A stretch of 64,000 bases of DNA from Alphaproteobacteria bacterium (GCA_045118155.1 JBGUXS010000078.1:443-64442); one strand, 5' to 3'. Numbered from the stretch's first letter, positions 2,145 to 56,237 are shown. Notes: a model not told the origin generated them from the letters alone. Numbers and translations: made by a program.

Positions 2145-2179
2145 TTTTACTAGAAAAAAGCTTTTATTACGTGTATAAT
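2145..2179 (+). promoter_or_regulatory. putative promoter for the 2199-6524 operon; -10 TATAAT at 2174-2179 preceded by TG
   Basis: gtgTATAAT lies 20 nt upstream of ATG 2199. No good -35 was found. Confidence 0.35.
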
Positions 2180-2198: not shown

Positions 2199-3341
2199 AT
2201 GCAGAAAAAACGCACCTTTATTATTGGACTTATTTGGGGGCTAATCTTCTTTTGGTGGCTGCACAATTTTTTTTACTTGAATTGGTATTTTCGGTTTTAC
2301 AGTCCCAAAGCTTGGGTTTATTTACTTCATGAATTCAAGTACGGTTGGCGGGTACGGGCCGTTTCCGATTGGATCTTTATTTTTACCCTTATTTTCGCAT
2401 TACCTCTGTTTTTCTGGGGGTGGTATCTATGCTTAAAAATCAAATGGTTGGCTCTTTTTAAATGGATAAAAAAACAATTTTTAAAACTTACCAACAAAAA
2501 ATCAACTGTTGTAAAAAAACAAATGAAGTTAGCCGCTAAAAAAAGTGTGCAAAAAGAACGCCCCCCTGCCCTTGCAACCCCCAAAGTAACTAGTCCCGAA
2601 AAGAAAATGCAAAAAATGCCATCTTCTGCCATCAAAAAAGAAGAAATCGATTTAGATTTTTCTGCTAAAGAAGAATTTTTGAAAGAAGAAAACATTCAAA
2701 CGGCACCTCCTGCCAAAGAACATCGGGCCCCGGATCCACCAAAAGGGGGACCTTCTTTCCTATTTGAAGATGATGATATCCCGCAACAAAACAATGATGT
2801 TCGGGCCGACACACTGTTGTCTGAAATAAAAATGCCAGAACGAGAACGAACACAAGAAAATATCCCAGATATTATTCACGCGCATGGCTTTAAGCCCATC
2901 ACGGCCATTGTGCATCCAGATATTTCTTTTGCGGCCGTTTCTTCAGATACCCTTTTGGTTGCTTTTGTGGATGAAGAACCAGGAGATTGGCTAGCCGATG
3001 AAGAAGATTTTGAAGGGGAAGACCCCTTGTGGTTTTCAGAAAGTTTTCATCGGGTTTCCCCAGTTTTTAAACTATTAAAAGTTGCTAAAAAAATCAGGGC
3101 TCAGTTAGAAAATCAAGGACTTTCTCATAAAGTAATTCCTTACTTAATTGAAAAAATGGGAAATATTATTAACGTAGAAGATATGCAAGAAACGTGGAAA
3201 GAACTGGGGGTCATTGTCTGCCGAACAGATGTTGGGGGGGATGAAACATTACCCACAGTAGAAGCTTCTTTCCCGCAAGCAAAAGATGTTGCAGAAGCTG
3301 CTGATTTAGATATAATAAAAGAAATTTTAAAAAAGTTATAG
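2199..3341 (+). CDS. hypothetical membrane-anchored protein: two N-terminal TM helices, a Lys-rich linker and a strongly acidic C-terminal domain; first gene of the coupling-protein operon
   Basis: TM helices FIIGLIWGLIFFWWL and WIFIFTLIFALPLFFWGWYL. KK-rich stretch from about residue 90 to 150. D/E-rich C-terminal half. Stop lies 9 nt before the next start, with the RBS AGGGGGAAAAG inside its 3' end. Confidence 0.6.
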   Translation: MQKKRTFIIGLIWGLIFFWWLHNFFYLNWYFRFYSPKAWVYLLHEFKYGWRVRAVSDWIFIFTLIFALPLFFWGWYLCLKIKWLALFKWIKKQFLKLTNKKSTVVKKQMKLAAKKSVQKERPPALATPKVTSPEKKMQKMPSSAIKKEEIDLDFSAKEEFLKEENIQTAPPAKEHRAPDPPKGGPSFLFEDDDIPQQNNDVRADTLLSEIKMPERERTQENIPDIIHAHGFKPITAIVHPDISFAAVSSDTLLVAFVDEEPGDWLADEEDFEGEDPLWFSESFHRVSPVFKLLKVAKKIRAQLENQGLSHKVIPYLIEKMGNIINVEDMQETWKELGVIVCRTDVGGDETLPTVEASFPQAKDVAEAADLDIIKEILKKL

Positions 3342-3350
3342 GGGGAAAAG

Positions 3351-5522
3351 TTGGGCGCCTCTGACGCGATGTACACCGAACGTAAAAAATATACGTACTA
3401 TGTGGCAGCTATCGTAGTACTGGCTCTTTTTGTATCTTGGATAATGCTGTTAATTACAATTCCTTTACAAGCTTTTATCCGTCAAGGGTTAGATATTGAA
3501 GCTTGGAATTACAGTGTTTCCTTTTGGACACATGCTTGGCATCCAAAAGTCATTTTTCAAGTCCTCAATAGTTGGTTTGATTCCCTAAAAACGTTAAAAA
3601 ATCCCCATTGGACTTTATATTTACCCTTTTTATCCTTTTTTATTGGCTTTATCGTTTTAGTGATAGGGCTAAAAAAGAATCCCTTTGAATACACACCAAA
3701 TATTTTTGGGAATGGACGTTTAGCCACTTATGCTGATGTCAAAAAAATGAAATTATTTACTGGGTTCTGCATCGTTTTGGGACGTTTTAAAGGCAAGTTA
3801 TTAAAAATGCCAGAAACCTTAGCGGCCTTAGTTGTTGCGCCACCGGGGACTGGTAAAACCGCTGGGGTGGTGATTCCCACCATTTTTGAATCCCCAGGAT
3901 TGAGTATTATTGTAAACGACCCTAAACCAGAATTATGTTATACCACAACCGGATATCGGGCACAACAAGGGCCTGTGTTCGTTATTAACTGGGGGGCCGA
4001 TGATGAACCAGAAAAAGGGATTTTCTTCCCTAGTTGGAATCCACTTTCTGCTTCATGCTTACCAGCACCAGGTCCCGCCAGAGATATGTACATAGACTCT
4101 ATGGTGGCTATTTTGGTAGAAGTTAATGAAAAAGATCCTCACTGGGGGAAAACTGGGCGAAATGCTATGTCTGGTTTTTTGAACTTTATCGCCAGTAAAT
4201 GTGAACGGGCACTTGCTAACGATTACTTTACTTCACGTTTAATGGACGATTTATTTGATGATGAAGACGCGGCCGTTTTAGAAACATACTATGCGGATAT
4301 GAACGATCCTGATACAGGGTCTGCTTTACAGGCATTAAAAAATGGGTCTATGACACGGGAATCTTACGTCCCTATCGGTACATGGGCGGGGCTACCTTCT
4401 GTTTGGCAAGGAAAAGAACCTTGTATTGCTATGATTTTGGACTGGCTGACGGAAATGCAAATGAAAATCAATGCCGATATTAAACGCCGTATGGATGAAG
4501 GGGATCAAATGGCGGCCATGGCAGACCCCATGCGGGATCTATTGGAAAGTGCCATCAGTGAAGCAGCCCGCTATGGCTATGCCAGACGTTCTGTCACAGA
4601 ACTCAATCAATTATCCGCCACACCGGATAAGGAACGGGGGTCTATTTTATCCACGGCCCTTTCTGGGATCAGTATTTTTAAAAACTCGGCAGTGCGTTCT
4701 AGAACTAAGTTCAGTGACATTACTTTCCGTGATTTACGTGGGATGCGTGATCCTATTACAGGGGAACAAAAACCTATTTCGGTTTATCTATCCGTTAACC
4801 AGGTAGATGCCCAAGCCTTAAATGTCATTACTGGGATTTTTGTTGAATTGATGAGCAGTTTCTTAATCGCGAACCCCCCAAATTTTGTTGGGGCAGGCGG
4901 GAAAAAGGCGGGACCATTTCCTGTTTTATTTGTGCTTGACGAGTTTCCACAAATGCCAAAATTGGATGCTGTGAAAAACGGGCCTGCCGTAGGGCGGGGA
5001 CAGAAAGTTTCTTATTTGCTCATTGGGCAGGATCTTGGACAGATTTCTGGTAAATACGGGAAAGATGATTTGGAAACAATCATTACAACAACAGCCGCTA
5101 AAGTCATTCTTTCTCAAAACAACGAACAAACCGCTGAACGTTTTACAAAAATGATTGGGACTAAAACGATTCAAGTAACAAGTTCTAGCCGAACTGAAGG
5201 GATTTCCAACCAAAATAACCCCTTTGCGGCAAACGTAAGCCGTTCCTACCAAAGCTCAAACGTGGTCCAAGTATCTGATATGATGAGCTTAGATATGCTT
5301 AAACAATACGTTTTATTCCAAGGATATCTAAACCATCCTATCTTAGCGGATGCCCCTCGTTATTACTTAGATAAAGTCATGCAAAAGAAAGCGGCCATTC
5401 CCCCTTCCCCATTTGTTCCGTATTGGATTGTAGCGCAACGGGAAGATACCGATTTAGAAACATTAAAAGCTTTGATGCAAGAGGAATTAGCAGATTTGGA
5501 TATTATCATAGAGGATGAATAA
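3351..5522 (+). CDS. virD4: type IV secretion coupling protein (VirD4/TraG/DotL family ATPase)
   Basis: Two N-terminal TM helices. Walker A VVAPPGTGKTAGVVIPT. Walker B VLFVLDEFPQMPKLD. NDPKPEL motif. Acidic C-terminal tail. TTG start at 3351; alternative ATG at 3369. Confidence 0.8.
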   Translation: MGASDAMYTERKKYTYYVAAIVVLALFVSWIMLLITIPLQAFIRQGLDIEAWNYSVSFWTHAWHPKVIFQVLNSWFDSLKTLKNPHWTLYLPFLSFFIGFIVLVIGLKKNPFEYTPNIFGNGRLATYADVKKMKLFTGFCIVLGRFKGKLLKMPETLAALVVAPPGTGKTAGVVIPTIFESPGLSIIVNDPKPELCYTTTGYRAQQGPVFVINWGADDEPEKGIFFPSWNPLSASCLPAPGPARDMYIDSMVAILVEVNEKDPHWGKTGRNAMSGFLNFIASKCERALANDYFTSRLMDDLFDDEDAAVLETYYADMNDPDTGSALQALKNGSMTRESYVPIGTWAGLPSVWQGKEPCIAMILDWLTEMQMKINADIKRRMDEGDQMAAMADPMRDLLESAISEAARYGYARRSVTELNQLSATPDKERGSILSTALSGISIFKNSAVRSRTKFSDITFRDLRGMRDPITGEQKPISVYLSVNQVDAQALNVITGIFVELMSSFLIANPPNFVGAGGKKAGPFPVLFVLDEFPQMPKLDAVKNGPAVGRGQKVSYLLIGQDLGQISGKYGKDDLETIITTTAAKVILSQNNEQTAERFTKMIGTKTIQVTSSSRTEGISNQNNPFAANVSRSYQSSNVVQVSDMMSLDMLKQYVLFQGYLNHPILADAPRYYLDKVMQKKAAIPPSPFVPYWIVAQREDTDLETLKALMQEELADLDIIIEDE

Positions 5523-6064
5523 TGACGGAAGATTTTAAGTTTGAAGATGGTCTAGGACAGGATTATTGGATTCGTGAATTTCATAAAATTCCCTTTCCAG
5601 GAATGGAATTGTTTGAAGTAACTTTTTTTAGACGTATAGAAGGGGCCTATGTGGATAAACATCAGCGCTTTAGAGAAATGGCCGTTGATTTTCTAAAAGA
5701 TTTAGGGAAAGAGGAAGAAGAACTTTATGCTTTTGAATTTTCTGAGGCCGAAGTCGCTTTGATTAAAAAAGGTCGTCTACCAGAAAATTATACTGTCCAT
5801 TTAAAATATCCTTTAGAATACGGTTGTGCATTGATCCCAGAACAATTTGTTTTGATGCCTATTGCCCCTTATTATCGGGATATTAATACTTATATCTTCA
5901 GACAACTTATAACCGATGAAGGAATTAAAAAGCCCCATCACCTTTATGTTCCCACACCAACAGGGCGTATTTATAAACCTTATTCTGGGGATGCAAGTGG
6001 CAGCGGTGGGAAAAGTAATACTTCCCAAATGGCGGCTATGTTTAACCAGGGGCGGGGGCGTTAA
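5522..6064 (+). CDS. hypothetical 180-aa protein with a Gly/Ser-rich basic C-terminus (...SGDASGSGGKSNTSQMAAMFNQGRGR), translationally coupled to virD4 (TAATG)
   Basis: Stop/start overlap with the T4CP gene. No recognisable motifs. Net-positive C-terminal tail. Confidence 0.55.
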   Translation: MTEDFKFEDGLGQDYWIREFHKIPFPGMELFEVTFFRRIEGAYVDKHQRFREMAVDFLKDLGKEEEELYAFEFSEAEVALIKKGRLPENYTVHLKYPLEYGCALIPEQFVLMPIAPYYRDINTYIFRQLITDEGIKKPHHLYVPTPTGRIYKPYSGDASGSGGKSNTSQMAAMFNQGRGR

Positions 6065-6065
6065 T

Positions 6066-6524
6066 ATGAAATTAATACATGTTGTTTTAAAAGCTATTTA
6101 TAAAGATGCCGCTGTTGTTTTTAATCCTGTGGCTTTGACTGATGTTCAAAAGGCCTCTTTTGAAATTGTAAAAAATAAAGGGATTAAAATTCCTAATGAT
6201 TATGCTGCCTTTTTAACAGAAGTTGATGGATTATCCTGGAATGGATTGTATCTTTTTTCCTTAAATGAAAAGGAACGTCAAGATGGCGCTTTTGTGCACC
6301 CTGGCATTCTACAAACATACCATAAGGGCTTAAAAAATCCGATTTTTAAAAACAGGCTTTTATTAGGATACGGCCCTGAAGAAATCATTACATATCATGC
6401 GGGAAAAAAAGAATATCAAATCCTAAGTCAATATGATTACAGAATCCTAGTACGGCTTCCCCGCTTCTTTGATGTACTGTATCACTATACCCATGCTTTA
6501 TTTGAGGATGCCCCTAAGGACTAG
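6066..6524 (+). CDS. SUKH/Smi1-Knr4-like protein (immunity-protein fold), 152 aa
   Basis: IPNDYAAFLTEVDGLSWNGLYLFSL ... LLLGYGPEEIITYH resembles the SMI1/KNR4 (SUKH-1) signature. ATG at 6066 sits 1 nt after the previous stop. The track ORF 5916-6524 is an over-extension into the previous gene. Confidence 0.5.
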   Translation: MKLIHVVLKAIYKDAAVVFNPVALTDVQKASFEIVKNKGIKIPNDYAAFLTEVDGLSWNGLYLFSLNEKERQDGAFVHPGILQTYHKGLKNPIFKNRLLLGYGPEEIITYHAGKKEYQILSQYDYRILVRLPRFFDVLYHYTHALFEDAPKD

Positions 6525-6931
6525 GACAAATCTTGCTTAACATGTGGCGTTTGCAAAAGTTCTTCAATGTGATCGGCCACTTCTAAGGAAGTATCTTTTT
6601 TAAAGATTAAATCTGGCACAATTCTTAACCGGATTTCTTTTCCAATGCGGTAACGAAAAAGGCCTTTATGTGCATTTAACAACTTCACTTGTTCATTCAC
6701 ATCAATTCCCCCGATACCATTTACAAAAACACTTGCGTAACTCAAATCTGGGGAAATGTTAGCTTGTGTGATTTGTAAAGCCCTTGGTTTTAAACCTGAA
6801 ATAAACAAATCCTCTTTAACCAACATCTGTCCAATTAGACGCCGAATGCTTTCTGAAACCCGAAGTTGCCGTTGTGATTGTTCTGACGTTTTCATAGAAG
6901 CTATTATACCTTTTTTTCTTGTTCCTTTCAA
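6521..6931 (-). CDS. rbfA: ribosome-binding factor A
   Basis: RQLRVSESIRRLIGQML...ISPDLSYASVFV...IVPDLIFKKD matches the RbfA pattern. The true start may be the internal Met (MKTSEQ). Confidence 0.8.
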   Translation of the reverse strand: MKGTRKKGIIASMKTSEQSQRQLRVSESIRRLIGQMLVKEDLFISGLKPRALQITQANISPDLSYASVFVNGIGGIDVNEQVKLLNAHKGLFRYRIGKEIRLRIVPDLIFKKDTSLEVADHIEELLQTPHVKQDLS

Positions 6932-6939
6932 GAATCTTT

Positions 6940-7680
6940 TTAGAACAAGTATCTAAGCCCCACCAAAACCGTCTGACTTTTATTTTCAACAGAAATCGGA
7001 GTTTTAGAAACTTTATCTGTCAATGAAATACGGCCTGGATCCATATAACGGTACCCTACATCTAAATCCAAATCCCGACCTAAATGTGTCGTGACACCGG
7101 CGGCTACATTCCAAGCCATTTTATACTTCCATGTTTCATGATTATAATGGTTCGTTCCTTTGTCTGATTGAACACGAATACGGGATTGGCTGACCCCGAT
7201 TCCTCCCCCAATATAAGGGCTAAAAGTATAAGAAGGGAACAAATCATAATAGGCATTCAAAAAATAAGTATTCATTTTAATATTGCTTGCCCGAACCCGT
7301 GTTCCATCATCCAACTTAAATACCGCATCCCTTTTCCCATGAGAATTATAGCTACCTTCAAGTTCCGTCCGCACATTTCCAAGCATTGTTTTGACTTGAA
7401 CCCCCAAAGCCCCGCTTAATTCCATCAGCTCATCCTTTTTTTTCTGAGATTGCCCCCCAATAGCGGGTTCAAAATCCCGTCCTTTATAGCCGATTTTTGC
7501 CTCAACATAAACCCGTTGACTAGGTTCCAAAGAATTATCTTTCAGACTCTCTTCCATATATTTGTTCTTATCATCCATCACGTAAAAATCAGTATCTCCC
7601 GCATAAGAGGCATAGTAGACACCAGCTTGTGCGTAATAACTTGACAAAACAAAAAAAGTAAAAATAAGCTTCTTCATCAT
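6940..7680 (-). CDS. outer-membrane beta-barrel protein (OMP_b-brl / Omp25-opacity-like)
   Basis: Signal peptide MMKKLIFTFFVLSSYYAQA. Alternating hydrophobic beta-strands. C-terminal ...GLRYLF with a terminal Phe. Confidence 0.7.
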   Translation of the reverse strand: MMKKLIFTFFVLSSYYAQAGVYYASYAGDTDFYVMDDKNKYMEESLKDNSLEPSQRVYVEAKIGYKGRDFEPAIGGQSQKKKDELMELSGALGVQVKTMLGNVRTELEGSYNSHGKRDAVFKLDDGTRVRASNIKMNTYFLNAYYDLFPSYTFSPYIGGGIGVSQSRIRVQSDKGTNHYNHETWKYKMAWNVAAGVTTHLGRDLDLDVGYRYMDPGRISLTDKVSKTPISVENKSQTVLVGLRYLF

Positions 7681-7698
7681 TTCATCCTCCTAAACCAA

Positions 7699-9510
7699 TT
7701 AGTCCCGTGTTACTTCGGGAAGGGTAAAATTATTTTCATCAAAAACACAGTATGTTTCAACCCGGGCGCTTAACGTATTGTCCCCCAAAGTTCCCCCTGT
7801 AAAATTCGTGGAACCCGCCCCCGTAACATAGCCAACTTCTATCCCCCATACTCTGGCAATATCCGCTTCGGTTTCTGCCTTTGCTTTATGAACATTATTA
7901 ACAGCCACAGCCACCGTATAGCGCGACACATTTGCATTTGTGACATTTGTGGTAGATCCATTTGTTACACCTTCAAAACTGTTCAAAACGTCCTTTCCGG
8001 TTGTTCGGATCGGGGTAACCACCAAAGCGGCCTTATATCCGGCCGGGCATGCTGGCGTTGTCACATTTGCCCGCAAGCAATTGTTCGTATATCCACTACA
8101 GTTCCCTAAATTAGCTTCTGTCGTTAATTCGGTAATAGATTTTGAAACATAATTCGGCAAGATATCACTTAATCTCGCCCCACCACGAGAAGCCAACTTA
8201 ACATCATTCATCACAGACGTATAAGCTGGATCTACCTGATAATGATCATACGTTTCTGATTCATTAGCAGCTTGAGCATCCACAAATTCAACGGATGAAT
8301 CAATACCTTTTGCAGACACGACTGCATTTTCTACTAACTGACCATCTGCATCATAAGCATTCAGCGTAACTTTCCCCTTGGAAGATCCATCTGTGGCTTC
8401 TTCAGCTTCGGCCTTTAAGACATCACGTCCGGCACTATCTCTGGTAATAATCTGCCCATTAGCATTGACAATAACCCGACGTTTGCCCGTGGCATCATAA
8501 ACGGTCACTGCCCGCTTGTCATTATCCACAGGATCAGTGGAAATAACGGCCGTTGAAACAAAGGCTTGAATTGTTTCCCCATCGTTCACGGGATCATCCA
8601 TAGAAACCGCTTGACGTCCTACATGCAAATCATTGCGGACATAAACATTCCCCGGGGTTCCTGCCAATCCTTCATCCGTTCCGTTTTCAAGATGTTCTGC
8701 CCCTACCCAAAATAAGGGGGCACATTCTTCCCCTGCATCCAAAATTGTATAACCGGTTGCATCTTTTCTAAAGCAATTCGTATTTCCTTCGCCAATAGAA
8801 AAATAGCTCCAAGCATGCAAGTTTTTGAAAGCGGCTTCATCTTCTAAAGAAGAAAAGAGTGCCCCTTCATCAAATCCAGTAAATGCAACATAAGACGGGC
8901 TTACCACAGGTTCCATCATCAAAGATGCCCCTTCTAATTCCCAAGTTCCCATGGTGCCTACAAAATTATCCCCTTGGACGATACCCCCATCAGCCCCAAT
9001 CAAGGCAGCGATACTAGCCGCCCGCTTTAAATTCCATGTTCCTTGCGGCAGTGCCGATGCTTTAGGTAAGATAACTCCATAAAAAGAGGTCCCAACTTTT
9101 GCCCCTTCCGTATTTTCTAAATTTTTCCCAAAAAGGTAAAAATTGTATTTTTCAGCCGTACTTGATGTCAAAACATCCCCTGTGTACGTGTTATAGGTCA
9201 CTGGTAAGTATGTTGCCACATTTTTCCACAACGTGTTATATGAACAATTGGAAGTTTCTGTTCCAGACAATGCACAAACCCCACCACCGGCTGTGGCTAA
9301 TTCTTCAAGTTGCCTATGTTGCGTTTGGATAAAAGAGGAAAAAGCTTCCTTCATCGTACGCATTTCGGTCGCTACATTAACATTGGCTAGTTCCCGATTA
9401 CGTTGTGCCACTTGCCTATACAAAACAGGTCCCAACACCGCCAAGATCCCTAAGACGGCAATAGCTTCTATCATAATAGACCCAGATTGGGTTTTTACAG
9501 CTTTTTTCAT
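7699..9510 (-). CDS. large (603 aa) prepilin-type (class III signal peptide) protein, TadG/pseudopilin/minor-pilin-like putative adhesin
   Basis: N-terminus MKKAVKTQSG|SIMIEAIAVLGILAVLG: basic leader ending in Gly, Glu at +5, then a hydrophobic helix. The remainder is Thr/Asn/Gly/Asp-rich and predicted extracellular. Confidence 0.65.
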   Translation of the reverse strand: MKKAVKTQSGSIMIEAIAVLGILAVLGPVLYRQVAQRNRELANVNVATEMRTMKEAFSSFIQTQHRQLEELATAGGGVCALSGTETSNCSYNTLWKNVATYLPVTYNTYTGDVLTSSTAEKYNFYLFGKNLENTEGAKVGTSFYGVILPKASALPQGTWNLKRAASIAALIGADGGIVQGDNFVGTMGTWELEGASLMMEPVVSPSYVAFTGFDEGALFSSLEDEAAFKNLHAWSYFSIGEGNTNCFRKDATGYTILDAGEECAPLFWVGAEHLENGTDEGLAGTPGNVYVRNDLHVGRQAVSMDDPVNDGETIQAFVSTAVISTDPVDNDKRAVTVYDATGKRRVIVNANGQIITRDSAGRDVLKAEAEEATDGSSKGKVTLNAYDADGQLVENAVVSAKGIDSSVEFVDAQAANESETYDHYQVDPAYTSVMNDVKLASRGGARLSDILPNYVSKSITELTTEANLGNCSGYTNNCLRANVTTPACPAGYKAALVVTPIRTTGKDVLNSFEGVTNGSTTNVTNANVSRYTVAVAVNNVHKAKAETEADIARVWGIEVGYVTGAGSTNFTGGTLGDNTLSARVETYCVFDENNFTLPEVTRD

Positions 9511-32655: not shown

Positions 32656-32831
32656 CGTAGTTTTTCCTCACAGCAACACTTTTCTTCAACAAACCATATA
32701 CGATCTTCAAATTCGGATTTTTTCCCCTTATTGAATTGGCTAACAGGACGAAAATACCCCATAACCCGTGTCCAACATTCCACCGCTTGACGTTCATTAG
32801 AAAATTTTTCTAAAATTTGGTTATCTGTCAT
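32643..32831 (-). CDS. stand-alone glycyl-radical domain (NrdD C-terminal-like) small protein, 62 aa
   Basis: RVMGYFRPVSQFNKGKKSEFEDRIWF matches the class III RNR glycyl-radical motif (RVCGY...N.GK..E..DR). ATGA overlap with the nrdD stop. Confidence 0.6.
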   Translation of the reverse strand: MTDNQILEKFSNERQAVECWTRVMGYFRPVSQFNKGKKSEFEDRIWFVEEKCCCEEKLRQAV

Positions 32832-34897
32832 GCTTTGTTCTCCTTTTCTGCAAGTTCTTGACGTTTTTTTTCAATGAGTTCCGCATCACACTTTGGGCAG
32901 AACTTGTGTTCCCCACTAATATACCCATGCTTGGGGCAAATAGAATAGACAGGGGTAATAGAAACATAAGGAAGATGATAATTTTCTAATACCCGTCTAA
33001 TAAGTGATTTACAAACACTTGCTGAAGAAATCCGTTCATTCATATACAGGTGCAAAACCGTTCCCCCTGTATACTGTGTTTGCAATTCATCTTGATAATC
33101 CAACGCTTTAAACGGATCATCTGTGAAGTTCTGTGGTAATTGAGAAGAGTTTGTATAATAGGGGGCCTCTTTCTTTCCTGCTTGAATAATACCAGGATAG
33201 CGTTTTTGATCTTCTTTGGCAAAACGATATGTTGTCCCTTCAGCTGGCGTTGCTTCCAAATTGTACATATTTCCTGTTTCTGCTTGGAAATCCAGCATTT
33301 TTTCCCGAATATGTGTTAAAAATTCTTTAGCCATCGCCCGCCCTTTTTCCGAAGCAATGTATTCTTCATCATTAGTAAAGTTCCGAATCATTTCATTAAT
33401 ACCATTAACCCCAATCGTGGAAAAATGATTTCGGAATGTTCCTAAATATCGCCGTGTATAAGGATACAACCCCCGATCCATGTGCATTGAAATGGTTTTA
33501 CGTTTAATTTCTAAGGAAGTCTTCGCTAATTCCAGTAATTCATCCAAACGTTTATACAATTCCTCTTTCTTCCCCTTATACAGGTATCCCAAACGGGCAC
33601 AGTTAATTGTAACAACCCCAATAGACCCCGTTTGTTCTGCTGAACCAAATAAACCACCACCTCGTTTTTTCAATTCCGTCAAATCCAACCGTAACCGACA
33701 ACACATTGAACGAATATCTGAAGGCTTCATATCAGAACTAACATAGTTTGAAAAATAGGGTAATCCATATTTAGCCGTCATTTCAAATAACAATTCCGTA
33801 TTTTCAGAATCCCATGGGAATTCATTTGTAATATTGTATGTCGGGATAGGGAAAGTAAACGGCCGCCCTTTGGCATCCCCACTTCCCATAACTTCTAAAT
33901 AAGCCCTATTAATCATATCCATTTCTTTTTGCAGATCACCATAAACAAAATCTTGTTCCACCCCCCCAATGATAGGGTGCCGATTCTTCAAATCTTCAGG
34001 GCAATTCCAATCAAAAGTTAAGTTCGTAAAGGGTGTCTGTGTCCCCCAACGCGATGGTACATTCAAGTTAAAGATGAAGGATTGCATCGCTTGTTTTACT
34101 TCTTCATAAGGTAATTTTTCAATTCGTATAAATGGTGCTAAGTACGTATCCACAGAAGAAAACGCCTGTGCCCCAGCCCATTCATTCTGCAAAGTCCCCA
34201 AGAAATTAATCATCTGGCTAAACGCAGAAACAAGGTGTTTTGGCGGTTTAGATTCTGTCTTATTGGGAACCCCATTAAAACCTTCTTCTAATAAAACCCT
34301 TAAGGACCACCCTGCACAATACCCACTCAACATATCCAAATCATGAATATGATAATCCCCATTTCGGTGAGCTTCCCCAATTTCTGGCGTATACACGTGG
34401 CTCAACCAATAATTGGCCACCACCTTTCCTGCCGTATTTAAAATCAATCCCCCTAAGGAATATCCTTGATTAGCATTTGCGTTCACCCGCCAATCTGACC
34501 GATCTAAATATTCATTAATAGAAGCCACCGCATCAATAACCGTTTTCTTATCATTCCGCATTTTTCCGCGTTGTTCACGGTACACGATATAAGCCCGGGC
34601 AGTTTTGTAATAATTAGAGGAAATTAAAACCTGTTCAACCACATCTTGAATTTGCTCAATATTAGGATAAACCCCGAAAGCAAACCGATGCTTTAAAACC
34701 TTAATAACTTGTCTTGTTAATAACCACGCTTCATCTTGACCGAATTCAGCCGTTGCTTCCCCAGCTTTCAAAATAGCAACCATAATTTTAGTCACATCAA
34801 ACGGATACTGTTGCCCATCCCGTTTAATTACATAGCTCAACGGACTAATATCAATGGTTACATTTAGCGGCTGGGCTCCTGTCAAAACTTGCAACAT
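32828..34897 (-). CDS. nrdD: anaerobic (class III) ribonucleoside-triphosphate reductase, large catalytic part without a glycyl-radical domain
   Basis: N-terminal ATP-cone (VIKRDGQQYPFDVTKI...AYIVYREQR). SMCCRLRLD region. C-terminal Zn ribbon CPKHG...CPKC. The ORF ends before any RVxGY motif. Confidence 0.75.
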   Translation of the reverse strand: MLQVLTGAQPLNVTIDISPLSYVIKRDGQQYPFDVTKIMVAILKAGEATAEFGQDEAWLLTRQVIKVLKHRFAFGVYPNIEQIQDVVEQVLISSNYYKTARAYIVYREQRGKMRNDKKTVIDAVASINEYLDRSDWRVNANANQGYSLGGLILNTAGKVVANYWLSHVYTPEIGEAHRNGDYHIHDLDMLSGYCAGWSLRVLLEEGFNGVPNKTESKPPKHLVSAFSQMINFLGTLQNEWAGAQAFSSVDTYLAPFIRIEKLPYEEVKQAMQSFIFNLNVPSRWGTQTPFTNLTFDWNCPEDLKNRHPIIGGVEQDFVYGDLQKEMDMINRAYLEVMGSGDAKGRPFTFPIPTYNITNEFPWDSENTELLFEMTAKYGLPYFSNYVSSDMKPSDIRSMCCRLRLDLTELKKRGGGLFGSAEQTGSIGVVTINCARLGYLYKGKKEELYKRLDELLELAKTSLEIKRKTISMHMDRGLYPYTRRYLGTFRNHFSTIGVNGINEMIRNFTNDEEYIASEKGRAMAKEFLTHIREKMLDFQAETGNMYNLEATPAEGTTYRFAKEDQKRYPGIIQAGKKEAPYYTNSSQLPQNFTDDPFKALDYQDELQTQYTGGTVLHLYMNERISSASVCKSLIRRVLENYHLPYVSITPVYSICPKHGYISGEHKFCPKCDAELIEKKRQELAEKENKA

Positions 34898-53441: not shown

Positions 53442-53517
53442 GTTTTTTTCATAAAAGCATTTTCTGCCTTTACTTTTCATCTCTTTTTGATTATGCTTGT
53501 TTCTACAAGGGGGTAAT

Positions 53518-53805
53518 ATGCGGGAACCTATTTTAAAAGCGGTCAGTATGCCGGCGCGTATTTTATGGGCGCCGTCGGTTCCGGCGTTGTTAAACATGGT
53601 TTGTCAATTACCTTTCATGTTGTTCTATGCGGGACAAGGGGGCAACCCTTTGCTATTCATGGGAACTATCATCGGGGTTCATGCCTTAATTGCTCTTTAT
53701 GCCGCGAAAGAACCTCATTTATCTAATATGTTCAAAGCCCAAGGTCCTTTCTTTAAGAAAAGTTCACAAATGTATACCTCATCAGGAAGAAAATACGCCC
53801 CATGA
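53518..53805 (+). CDS. virB3: type IV secretion system protein VirB3 (TrbD-like)
   Basis: Two TM helices. ILKAVSMPARILWAPSVPALLNMV...LLFMGTIIGVHALIALYAAKEPHL matches the VirB3 family. RBS AAGGGGG. ATGA overlap with virB4. Confidence 0.75.
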   Translation: MREPILKAVSMPARILWAPSVPALLNMVCQLPFMLFYAGQGGNPLLFMGTIIGVHALIALYAAKEPHLSNMFKAQGPFFKKSSQMYTSSGRKYAP

Positions 53806-56237
53806 ATCAAACAGATGTTTTCGCCCTTATTTTACAAAATGCTTCCTCTACGGGGTTACTTATTGCCTTGTTAGGAGTATTAGCACTTGTTTTTGTCATG
53901 GTTGTATTTGTGACCTCCTTAGGAAATATGTTACTTCCCAAACCAAAAGAAACCCTTGTTTCTGATTTTCTTCCTTTTTCAAGGCTAGACCCAGATGGTG
54001 CCACCATTTACATGCGTAATGGTACTTTGGCTCGTGTTTTTGAATTAACAGGAACGGATACCACTTTAGCAAGTGATATTGAACGTAAAGCCTTAATGGA
54101 AAAACGGCAACAATGGATTGATTCACTAAGTGAATTAGAAATTATTTGCAGGGTTATTACGATTCGTGAAAAAATTCCTTTAGCCGAAGAAACACTACAT
54201 CCAGATAATCCTTTGCTCAATAAAGTGTCAGAACTTTGGTTGAACAGTTTACACCGTATTTTCAGAAACAAACATTACCTAATTCTTTCCGTTAATGATC
54301 GTAAGGATGCCATTAATGATTTAATTCAGGCAACAAATGCGACTCTTTCTATTTTAGATGTTTATCATCCTATTCTTATTTCTGAAAAAACCCCAGATAA
54401 ACATCAAGACAAAAGCCCCTTTTGGGTTTTTTCACAACTTGTCAGCCCCGTATCAAACCCCAAACCCATTGTAGGCTTTGAAAAAGGGGAAGAACTTAAT
54501 TCCTTTTTAACGTCTGACTATATCCACTTCACAAAAGATGAAGGGATTATCCGTTTCTTTTCTGGGGATAGGGAAAAATTAGCCATTTGTATCGGTATTC
54601 GTAAGCCTGGGGATTTCATGGATGAACAAATGGTTGCCCGTATTTTAGGAATTGATTGTGAAGTTGTTATTACACACAATATCCATGCTATTCCAAAAGC
54701 AAAAGGAAACCTGTTAATGATTCAACAACGCCGTATGGCTTACTTAACAAGTTTTTCTGAAAGTGTACGTTCCCAATATAATACCGCCATGCAATTAATG
54801 GATCCTTCTGATATTAATTCACAAACCCTTAATGAATATTCTATGTCTATTATGGTTTATGGGGAATCTAAGGAAGAACTTGTTTTTGGACAACAGGAAG
54901 TTGAAAAAATATGCCGACTTTACGGGGTGACCCCTGTGCGAGAAGGTTGGATTACTCAAGCTGTTTTCTTTTCTCAAATTCCCTCTTATGAAGTATATCC
55001 ACGTACATACTTGTATTTATCGCGGGTAGTGGCGTGTTCCATTTGCATGGATAAAACAACTGAAGGCCGGCAAAAATCTGATTGGGGGCCTGTGCCTATT
55101 TCTTACTTCCGGACTATTACGGGGACCCCTTACGCTTTCCAATTTCATGTAACAGAAGAACCCTATGCTGTGGCACATACAGCCCTTATTGGTCCAACGG
55201 GACAAGGGAAAACAACCTTATTTTCATTTTTAGCAGGCCAATCTTCCCGTATTCCAGATTTACGGACTTATTTCTTTGACCGTAACAATGGGGCCAAAGT
55301 TTTTGCTTTATTACAAGGGGCTCCTTATGTGCGGTTTGATGGGGGGGACAATGCTGTTGCCTTAAATCCTTTCTTTATGCCAGATTCCCCTGAAAACAGG
55401 GCATTTTTACGATCTTGGTTACGCTCTATTACTGGCTGTACAGATGCTTTTTCCGAAGAAGAAATTGCCCGAGCCGTTACAACAGCTTATGACTATTTAA
55501 AACCAGAAGAACGTCTTTTGAAGAACTTGTATAAAAGCTCTTTTTCCTTAAACGGAGATATGCGCCGTGAACTAAAACGTTGGGTCAGTGATGATCAATA
55601 TGGTCGGATCTTTAATGCCGAAGAAGATAAATTAGATATTGATAACCGCTATACTGGTTTTGATTTTACGCATATTTTCCAAGATGGGACGTTGGCTCCT
55701 GCTGTCATCAGTTATATCATGTACCGCATTCATGAATTAGCTAGTTTAAAAGGGACCCCCTCGTTAGTGATGATTGATGAAACGGCCCCTATGTTAGAAC
55801 ATCCTATGTTCCGAGACAATTTCATTGTAGGCCTTCGGGAAGGACGAAAGAAACGACAAGCATTCTTATGTGCTTTCCAGCAACCTCGCTTTTTAGATGA
55901 AAACGGTTTAGGGGATGTGATTCGTGGCCAATGTCAAACCATTATTTTCTTTAGAAATTTACAGGCAACCCCCGCGGATTATGAATCTTGGAATTTAACC
56001 CCAAGTGAACTAAACTTTATTCTAGGAAAAGAATTTATTGATCATAAATACGCCATCCTTGTCAAACGGCCCGCTGTTAATGAATCTGTTATCTTAGATA
56101 TTAATTTGGGGGGATTAGGTCCCTACTTAAAAATTTATTCTTCTGGGAATAAAAATGTGGCCTTAGTTGAACGTCTTAGTCATGAACTAAAATATGCTAA
56201 AGATATCCTACAACAATATCTACAGTTATCTGATTAG
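53802..56237 (+). CDS. virB4: type IV secretion system ATPase VirB4 (TrbE-like), 811 aa
   Basis: Walker A LIGPTGQGKTT. Walker B SLVMIDETAPML. N-terminal TM helix. CagE/TrbE/VirB4 architecture. Confidence 0.88.
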   Translation: MNQTDVFALILQNASSTGLLIALLGVLALVFVMVVFVTSLGNMLLPKPKETLVSDFLPFSRLDPDGATIYMRNGTLARVFELTGTDTTLASDIERKALMEKRQQWIDSLSELEIICRVITIREKIPLAEETLHPDNPLLNKVSELWLNSLHRIFRNKHYLILSVNDRKDAINDLIQATNATLSILDVYHPILISEKTPDKHQDKSPFWVFSQLVSPVSNPKPIVGFEKGEELNSFLTSDYIHFTKDEGIIRFFSGDREKLAICIGIRKPGDFMDEQMVARILGIDCEVVITHNIHAIPKAKGNLLMIQQRRMAYLTSFSESVRSQYNTAMQLMDPSDINSQTLNEYSMSIMVYGESKEELVFGQQEVEKICRLYGVTPVREGWITQAVFFSQIPSYEVYPRTYLYLSRVVACSICMDKTTEGRQKSDWGPVPISYFRTITGTPYAFQFHVTEEPYAVAHTALIGPTGQGKTTLFSFLAGQSSRIPDLRTYFFDRNNGAKVFALLQGAPYVRFDGGDNAVALNPFFMPDSPENRAFLRSWLRSITGCTDAFSEEEIARAVTTAYDYLKPEERLLKNLYKSSFSLNGDMRRELKRWVSDDQYGRIFNAEEDKLDIDNRYTGFDFTHIFQDGTLAPAVISYIMYRIHELASLKGTPSLVMIDETAPMLEHPMFRDNFIVGLREGRKKRQAFLCAFQQPRFLDENGLGDVIRGQCQTIIFFRNLQATPADYESWNLTPSELNFILGKEFIDHKYAILVKRPAVNESVILDINLGGLGPYLKIYSSGNKNVALVERLSHELKYAKDILQQYLQLSD

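Follow-up and report, generated by a model that had tools for sequence, protein, structure and literature searches.

HNH toxin domains with a VHHK...N...H pattern have been found next to immunity proteins of the YrhA family in several delivery contexts, including the LXG toxin of the type VII secretion system (T7SS) on a Bacillus subtilis SPbeta-like element (NZ_CP064819.1), an RHS-associated orphan of Photobacterium toruni (NZ_AP024856.1), and metagenomic RHS, PT-HINT, and MuF proteins. Type IV secretion systems (T4SS) also have effectors of the HNH superfamily, namely TfdA of S. maltophilia (PMC11253643) and LtdD of L. enzymogenes (PMC13600162), which are VirD4-dependent cargo recruited via an XVIPCD. 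The SUKH fold, to which YrhA immunity proteins belong, has been reused for binding adaptors such as Syd on the SecY translocon, with such reuse described mainly for eukaryotes and viruses (PMC3113570). Our literature searches pairing SUKH with type IV coupling protein (T4CP), RF32 with T4SS, and YrhA with immunity turned up no earlier account in which a SUKH/HNH pair is linked to a T4CP. Here we describe a pair of this kind in a 64,000-nucleotide stretch of an Alphaproteobacteria bacterium (GCA_045118155.1 JBGUXS010000078.1:443-64442; hereafter the window, with positions counted from its first letter), in which two open reading frames (ORFs), ORF-A and ORF-B, directly follow a gene for a VirD4/TraG-type T4CP. 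We consider the chances to be somewhat better than even that A and B are an exapted, nuclease-dead toxin/immunity pair that works at the T4CP, either as client and chaperone or as an adaptor.

An earlier note on this DNA had described the 180-aa product of ORF-A as having no known motifs. This proved to be wrong, as profile searches and hhalign comparisons reveal a degenerate HNH toxin domain. No Pfam family was matched at E<=5 by the 20 members of the ORF-A family that were searched, and a profile of 20 A homologues run with hmmsearch against 1.84 billion representatives gave 524 matches, 244 of them at E<=1e-10. Among the matches listed, the A domain forms the extreme C-terminus in 37 of the 45 relatives of at least 300 aa. 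Ten long relatives were scanned for other domains; five carry toxin or phage delivery domains (RHS repeats/core, PT-HINT, PT-TG, MuF_C, and Portal_Mu), while six have a weak, generic Pfam HNH match within the matched C-terminal region. Annotated relatives bear the names "HNH endonuclease signature motif containing protein", "T7SS effector LXG polymorphic toxin", and "pre-toxin TG domain-containing protein". When the A family was aligned with 12 canonical toxin domains, hhalign returned 99.8% (E=3e-28) over 128 columns, and the canonical toxin family in turn matched Cas8f-HNH (2e-6), a group II intron maturase HNH domain, pyocin AP41, and colicin E7 in the PDB. The AlphaFold2 (AF2) model of ORF-A has strands at residues 90-94 and 109-113 and a helix at 114-129; Foldseek found nothing for this model in the PDB at E<0.49. 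Sequence profiles of the A and B families had no significant match in the PDB either, and it was the fold search and the wider profile search that identified both proteins. Each canonical toxin is trailed by a gene of ~150 aa, whether the toxin is an RHS protein (L041), a PT-HINT protein (L042), the LXG toxin of B. subtilis (L045), or the RHS-associated orphan of Photobacterium (L046). Two of these four genes have the PGAP label "YrhA family", all three that were scored against NF038335 reached 122-165 bits, and the two tested with a hidden Markov model (HMM) of the B family gave 1e-15 and 2e-12. Because the canonical toxins are paired with YrhA-family genes, a toxin/immunity ancestry of A and B is supported. 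By these profile comparisons, A is homologous to an HNH toxin domain and B to the YrhA-type SUKH immunity family that is cognate to this domain. The Rehh/Tox-REHH family (bioRxiv 2026) was considered as the identity of ORF-A and rejected, as it is a separate, active HNH family. Many A homologues also have a long, acidic, repeat-rich N-terminal extension, which ranges from 0 to ~170 aa across the clade; those of L026 and L028 reach ~345 aa through an acidic extension with tandem repeats of a PSQAHGF(N/T)EQSS-like unit.

ORF-B has the SUKH fold and lies near the YrhA immunity family. Taken alone, it falls under the Pfam cutoffs, both for SUKH_6 (E=0.0065, 17.4 bits vs 27) and for SMI1_KNR4 (E=0.015, 16.4 bits vs 25.4). 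SMI1_KNR4 is, however, matched by 13 of 13 members of the ORF-B family, and ORF-B itself matches NCBIfam NF038335 (YrhA family) at E=7e-13 with 48.7 bits, below the curated cutoff of 55. Since the true cognate immunity proteins score 122-165 bits in the latter comparison, ORF-B is a divergent relative of the YrhA family. On the family-wide and NF038335 matches, the SUKH signature that the earlier note had read in ORF-B is more than chance, and the peptides it quoted, IPNDYAAFLTEVDGLSWNGLYLFSL and LLLGYGPEEIITYH from ORF-B and ...GKSNTSQMAAMFNQGRGR from the end of ORF-A, are all present. The fold of the 152-aa protein had been named beforehand as a check that could overturn the proposal, and the fold search returned the SUKH alpha+beta fold, leaving it standing on this point. 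ORF-B also lies directly 3' of the toxin-domain gene, as it does in 64 of 64 scanned loci.

The two ORFs downstream of virD4 are indeed tightly coupled, as had been claimed. The T4CP stop codon and the ORF-A ATG have one base in common (TAATG, 5520-5524), a Shine-Dalgarno-like AGAGGA lies at 5510-5515, 6 nt 5' of the ORF-A start, and a single nucleotide separates the ORF-A stop from the ORF-B start. We first collected 36 loci, consisting of 5 metagenome contigs and 31 GTDB species representatives (30 with Alphaproteobacteria and one with Lactobacillales in the title, many of them named from animal gut samples), to which a second scan added 28 further metagenome loci for a total of 64. In all 64, the order up380-T4CP-A-B is maintained as far as the contig reaches, up380 being the gene upstream of the T4CP, and the order T4CP-A-B is also found in L039 and L040. 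The pair is thus fixed within the coupling-protein operon of a clade of animal-gut Alphaproteobacteria, with strict T4CP synteny. Direct homologues form 23 clusters for A and 12 for B, all of them derived from metagenomes or metagenome-assembled genomes (MAGs). Gaps within the block are typically -1 to +3 nt, and the flanks vary by lineage, with lgt...rbfA in the window, clpB in one lineage, and rpmB/dnaJ in another. Identity to the window is ~69% for the T4CP, ~40% for A, 36-68% (mostly 37-52%) for B, and ~35% for up380. Pairwise Nei-Gojobori estimates over 40 locus pairs gave ratios of nonsynonymous to synonymous change (dN/dS) of 0.033 for the T4CP, 0.135 for up380, 0.046 for the A core, 0.016 for the A tail, and 0.067 for B, which indicates strong purifying selection upon A and B without an arms-race signature. 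The marks of a polymorphic toxin, i.e. an N-terminal trafficking domain, variable cassettes, and diversifying evolution, are missing, as A is a standalone protein present in one copy per locus in strict synteny. Relative to the nearest relative, the window ORF-A has 4 nonsynonymous and 2 synonymous changes and the T4CP has 2 and 24, respectively; six substitutions in A are too few to claim relaxed selection. ORF-B is identical in the window and L044.

Active-site columns were compared in 148 relatives and in the 36 syntenic homologues. The canonical toxins follow the pattern G-x-x-P-x-G-[YW]-Q-V-H-H-K-x-P-L-D-D-G-G-T-N-x-F-x-N-L-V-L-I...P-Y-H-x-x-I-[TH], and the T4CP-linked A proteins follow P-E-N-Y-T-V-H-L-K-Y-P-L-E-Y-G-G...N...P-[FY]-H-x-x-I-H. 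The key difference lies in the second His column, which reads VHHK..P in the toxins vs VH[LIM]K in the T4CP-linked copies. Leu occupies this column in 36 of 36 syntenic A homologues and in the window (L94). The other tail-bearing relatives have L, I, M, V, R, or Q there; 89 of 125 distant relatives have His, among them each of the 31 long proteins with the domain at the C-terminus that were classed as HH. PDB alignments (VHHklP = VHHIVP, eIHHILP) put the second His at the H-x-x-P position. We take the His at this position to be the HNH general base, equivalent on alignment and general knowledge to H103 of colicin E9 and H840 of Cas9. Mutation of the HNH general-base His abolishes cleavage. H93, N108, H118, and H122 are conserved in 36 of 36 syntenic homologues, though not in every wider relative, and N108 is found in each of the 143 further aligned sequences without a gap in this column (5 more are gapped). 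The window site, in contrast, reads H93, L94, Q108, Y118, and N122, such that H93 alone is retained among the Asn and metal-ligand His positions. The window copy and its 98%-identical relative share N108Q, H118Y, H122N, and G102C and are eroded beyond any of the 36 syntenic homologues. Judged from these residues, the ORF-A site would be dead by the canonical HNH mechanism.

A second conserved feature of ORF-A is its C-terminal tail. In the main clade, A ends in [FY]TGSGGKNKQDRSVYAGFSKAAFEKIALKxMPGR, a 34-residue motif with a net charge of +4/+5 and an invariant terminal GR. This tail has the lowest dN/dS of any A segment and always sits at the very C-terminus in the 28 metagenome-contig loci. 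It is absent from 31 of 31 long C-terminal toxins of the HH type and present on 9 of 9 long non-HH C-terminal proteins. Short proteins that bear it are likewise of non-HH types, apart from 1 HH protein, and the tail-bearing non-HH copies are mostly T4CP-linked. A scan of metagenome contigs with the tail pattern gave 28 loci, every one an A homologue, and a word-indexed protein search with the tail gave only five short fragments, from which little can be read. In the window, the last 26 residues have a net charge of +2. The tail there is predicted to be disordered (AF2 predicted local distance difference test below 50) and has lost all of the family motif except SGGK and the final GR. Thus, the basic tail to which the earlier note drew attention is both conserved and clade-specific in the family, but the window has an eroded version of it. 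Overall, the conserved basic tail fits a T4CP-docking or translocation element. We found no XVIPCD on ORF-A, the argument being one of size, as this recognition domain spans ~100-120 aa in the X-Tfe effectors of Xanthomonas-type T4SS (X-T4SS) and merely 25 residues follow the HNH-like core of ORF-A.

The gene 5' of ORF-A is, on its domain content, solidly a VirD4/TraG-type T4CP. Its Pfam matches are well over the cutoffs (T4SS-DNA_transf, 1.2e-54; TraG-D_C, 7.9e-23; TrwB_AAD_bind, 2.8e-18), and the translation contains Walker A (PPGTGKT) and Walker B (VLFVLDEF) motifs. The T4CP C-terminus has a conserved PWVPYWIVAQRE[DN]TD motif followed by an acidic tail. Its last 45 residues carry a net charge of -7 in the window and of 0 to -9 in nearly all relatives (one has +1), making this acidic end a possible counterpart of the basic tail of ORF-A. 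The up380 protein consists of N-terminal transmembrane segments, a charged linker rich in Lys, Glu, and Pro, and, at the C-terminus, a conserved domain that bears the motif GDWLADEERFNGEDPLWFSESSHRVSP. Weak Pfam NERD matches were obtained for 5 of 12 family members (best E=1.3e-5), the window copy had no Pfam match, and searches of PDB sequences with the domain found none, so that it may tentatively be called NERD-like (PD-(D/E)xK-type). From our reading of ...LVDSQ/EE..., up380 apparently lacks the Lys normally found in the D...(D/E)xK motif.

If A and B have been exapted as a pair that serves the T4CP, then A, a descendant of an HNH toxin domain, would no longer cut DNA, and B would still clamp A in the manner of an immunity protein on its toxin, acting as a partner or chaperone and not as an antidote. 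The complex would operate at the cytoplasmic face of the T4CP with the disordered basic tail of A as its docking element, and contact with the T4CP could be made via this tail or by B itself. We regard it as about equally probable that A is a dedicated, non-enzymatic, translocated client of the T4CP or a non-exported adaptor/regulator of substrate recruitment. As both the tail and the metal site are further eroded in the window sublineage, the ancestral role may be weakening or changing there. Several points weigh against this proposal. HNH sites can be remodelled beyond recognition and still be active (bioRxiv 10.64898/2026.09.22.753552), and since divergent HNH toxins can conceal intact chemistry, we infer the inactivity of ORF-A and do not observe it. 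Residual or altered chemistry may likewise persist in those copies that keep H93, N108, H118, and H122. The connection of A and B to the T4CP is one of gene adjacency, and there is one locus (L037) in which a NERD-like/A/B trio occurs without an adjacent T4CP. The order at 4229-9204 of this metagenomic, alphaproteobacterium-like contig is a 921-aa protein (no Pfam match), a 336-aa up380-like protein that is a weak homologue, an A homologue, a B homologue, and an RHH_4 protein. All five key HNH columns are replaced in this A homologue (MFNAY), and the first half of the tail persists as GG....DR[ML][ST]. Given that the trio is seen without the T4CP, up380, A, and B may themselves be the functional unit. 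The tail is also not universal, because a T4CP-linked group of the P0071 type (186 aa) has none, while that of the window sublineage (window, L001, P0003, and P0004) is eroded to SGGK plus a terminal GR or SR, with a net charge of +1/+2. Finally, a tail HMM run against all window and locus ORFs hit only A genes. On the ORFs and contigs searched, the tail is thus no secretion signal common to several proteins, and the translocated-client branch is the weaker for it.

It is possible, though we think it doubtful, that the exaptation went further and the HNH-toxin/SUKH cassette and the membrane-anchored NERD-like protein have become permanent, non-toxic subunits of the VirD4 coupling-protein complex, in which the basic tail of the dead nuclease and the SUKH clamp would gate or recruit substrates. 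Such a complex would be a type IVA secretion system counterpart of the DotL-IcmSW-LvgA adaptor complex made of weapon parts. An arrangement of the DotM-DotL type with IcmS/W-type adaptors was itself rejected, as the T4CP is of the VirD4/TraG type, the window has virB3-like and virB4 genes, the protein upstream resembles NERD and not DotM, and A/B are HNH/SUKH proteins.

An improbable alternative is a DNA-handling accessory role, with the dead HNH domain of A and the membrane-anchored NERD-like protein binding nucleic acid without cleaving it and presenting DNA or nucleoprotein to the T4CP, and with B masking the DNA-binding cleft of A until hand-over, much like relaxosome accessory factors or VirE2/VirE1. 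This would account for a T4CP flanked by two nuclease-derived domains that lack canonical catalytic residues, and it is consistent with the metal-ligand residues retained in all 36 aligned homologues, with a trio that holds together even without an adjacent T4CP, and with the RHH protein that follows the trio in L037. However, the block has no relaxase, oriT, or mobile-element signature nearby and is flanked by housekeeping genes, the NERD assignment is weak, and DNA binding by A is a prediction only.

Equally improbable for the family as a whole, and less probable still for the window copy, is that A remains an active effector toxin, which would reach bacteria or eukaryotes through the VirB/D4 T4SS by means of its basic tail, with B as the immunity protein that protects the producer. 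Several points speak for this reading, which the earlier note proposed, including the ancestry of the pair from a nuclease toxin and a YrhA immunity protein, a basic, disordered tail in a C-terminal position, and B being kept everywhere. A toxin domain with a C-terminal signal beside virD4 also matches the logic of polymorphic toxins and the X-T4SS HNH effectors TfdA and LtdD, and three metal-type residues plus the Asn are retained in 36 of 36 aligned homologues. It is the active function that is poorly supported. The general-base His is gone from all 36 aligned T4CP-linked copies and from the Hx/tail-bearing proteins of the library search, and the window copy has also lost N108, H118, and H122. 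Polymorphism and diversifying selection are not seen, as dN/dS is ~0.05 and each locus has a single copy in strict synteny that looks vertical. The core is followed by just 25 residues, with no XVIPCD and no Pfam match at E<=5, and the tail itself is eroded in the window lineage. The analogy with Xanthomonas-type effector/immunity pairs fares similarly, since the virD4 linkage is borne out in 64 of 64 loci, but an XVIPCD-type signal is lacking and the genes are fixed, single-copy, and under purifying selection. Active toxin/immunity function is therefore unlikely, especially for the window copy.

Still less probable is a relic reading, under which the pair would be a toxin-antitoxin-like or addiction cassette in decay, 3' of virD4 by chance and without a role in secretion. 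This would suit the extra erosion of the window copy (Q108, Y118, N122, G102C, and a shortened tail) and the 4 nonsynonymous/2 synonymous changes in A compared to 2/24 in the T4CP, but not two intact and tightly coupled ORFs with a dN/dS of 0.02-0.07 across the clade, an ORF that stays open despite 40-60% divergence inside the window sublineage, a B protein identical in the window and L044, or T4CP synteny that persists across differing genomic contexts. A defense-system reading was rejected too, as PADLOC left up380, A, and B unmatched and gave the T4CP no more than a weak mad8 match.

Coordinates of the T4CP block and of the other T4SS genes in the window
Feature	Position	Strand	Remarks
Candidate operon promoter, TAGAAA-17-TATAAT	2151..2179	+	immediately 5' of the first gene of the block; 10/12 consensus matches
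up380, 380 aa, first gene of the conserved four-gene block	2199..3341	+	
VirD4/TraG-type T4CP	3351..5522	+	723 aa from TTG; likelier start is the ATG at 3369
ORF-A, 180 aa, standalone degenerate HNH toxin-type domain (~residues 14-155) with short disordered basic tail	5522..6064	+	
Predicted beta-beta-alpha-metal core of ORF-A, residues 90-129, eroded site	5789..5908	+	AF2 model; column comparisons
ORF-A C-terminal tail, residues 156-180, GDASGSGGKSNTSQMAAMFNQGRGR	5987..6061	+	
ORF-B, 152 aa, cytoplasmic SUKH-fold protein, divergent member of the YrhA (NF038335) immunity family	6066..6524	+	
virB3-like ORF (53497-53805) and virB4 (53802-56237)	53497..56237	+	47 kb from the T4CP block

The promoter-like site at the head of the block is a consensus match alone, and such sites are fewer in the region than in shuffled sequence. 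The virB4 assignment is based upon a match to Pfam CagE_TrbE_VirB (5e-12), while the VirB3 assignment reflects our own reading of a small membrane ORF that overlaps the virB4 start, and we accordingly refer to it as virB3-like. Both genes stand by themselves between gatCAB and acpS/rpoZ, no search aimed at further virB genes having been made. As they are 47 kb from virD4, the T4SS genes found here are scattered among housekeeping genes, a layout that recalls the rvh system of the Rickettsiales; in L003, the T4CP block and a VirB4 homologue are 5.5 kb apart. Just 5' of the block, on the opposite strand, is a small Cys-rich gene (1801-2142, -) whose counterparts in L001 and L044 are annotated as RNHCP (PF12647) and which is retained in the window sublineage alone. 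At the other end, ORF-B (+) and rbfA (-) meet tail-to-tail with overlapping stop codons at 6521-6524, leaving no space for an intergenic terminator. Further downstream, a 603-aa ORF (7699-9510, -) has an N-terminus resembling a type IV pilin/pseudopilin leader plus hydrophobic helix (MKKAVKTQSGSIMIEAIAVLGILAVLGPVLY); it has no Pfam match, is oversized for a pilin-like protein, and adjoins an outer membrane protein beta-barrel gene (6940-7680). The window also encodes the anaerobic ribonucleotide reductase NrdD (32828-34897, -; Pfam NRDD, 2e-176), which would suit an anaerobe of the gut and agrees with the animal-gut source of related MAGs.

If A and B do serve the T4CP as an exapted pair, they would clearly show that bacteria can domesticate a conflict module of toxin and immunity protein, either as part of the core secretion machinery or as a dedicated client. 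They would also give access to the question of how substrates are recognized by the T4SS of uncultured animal-gut Alphaproteobacteria, which is scattered in the manner of the Rickettsiales and has barely been studied; the four-gene operon, the 34-residue tail motif, and the natural tail-less and site-less variants provide material for comparison. The locus carries a caution as well, in that a SUKH gene beside a secretion gene does not amount to an active toxin/immunity pair unless the catalytic residues have been checked.

Compared with described systems, the A-B pair combines familiar and unfamiliar traits. It resembles the HNH/YrhA pairs in the homology of both partners, the toxin-then-immunity order, the tight spacing, and an immunity protein of ~150 aa. 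Unlike those toxins, ORF-A has no N-terminal delivery domain, has Leu in place of the general-base His, and has gained a basic C-terminal tail; and whereas those pairs reside in variable cassettes, A-B is fixed, single-copy, under purifying selection, and beside a T4CP. As in X-Tfe/X-Tfi pairs, a toxin-type domain is N-terminal to a C-terminal element, and there is VirB/VirD4 linkage, with ORF-A overlapping the virD4 stop and virB3-like/virB4 genes in the window. X-Tfe proteins, however, are active DNases, accessory, and variably present, while ORF-A has an apparently dead site, a tail of 25-45 aa, and universal synteny. With colicin E7/E9 DNases, Cas9, and Cas8-HNH, ORF-A is predicted to share the beta-beta-alpha-metal layout H-H-x-x-P...GG...N...H...H, but in contrast to the active colicin and Cas HNH domains it has a natural Leu at the equivalent of colicin E9 H103/Cas9 H840. 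Im7/Im9 of the colicin systems are not SUKH proteins, whereas ORF-B is one, and ORF-B retains its partner, unlike Syd, Smi1/Knr4, FBXO3, and US22, none of which has a toxin-derived partner. IcmS-IcmW-LvgA-DotN on DotL in Legionella and VirE1-VirE2 in Agrobacterium are small, cytoplasmic, lineage-conserved proteins that hold partners at or with the coupling protein. The likeness of A-B to IcmS/IcmW/LvgA and VirE1 is a functional analogy drawn from general knowledge, with T4CP binding by A-B as our proposal; neither A nor B shows sequence or fold kinship to IcmS/IcmW/VirE1-type adaptors, and no IcmS/IcmW-type Pfam match was found. The kinds of components are thus all known, and what appears to be new is their fixed, seemingly catalytically dead, T4CP-embedded arrangement.

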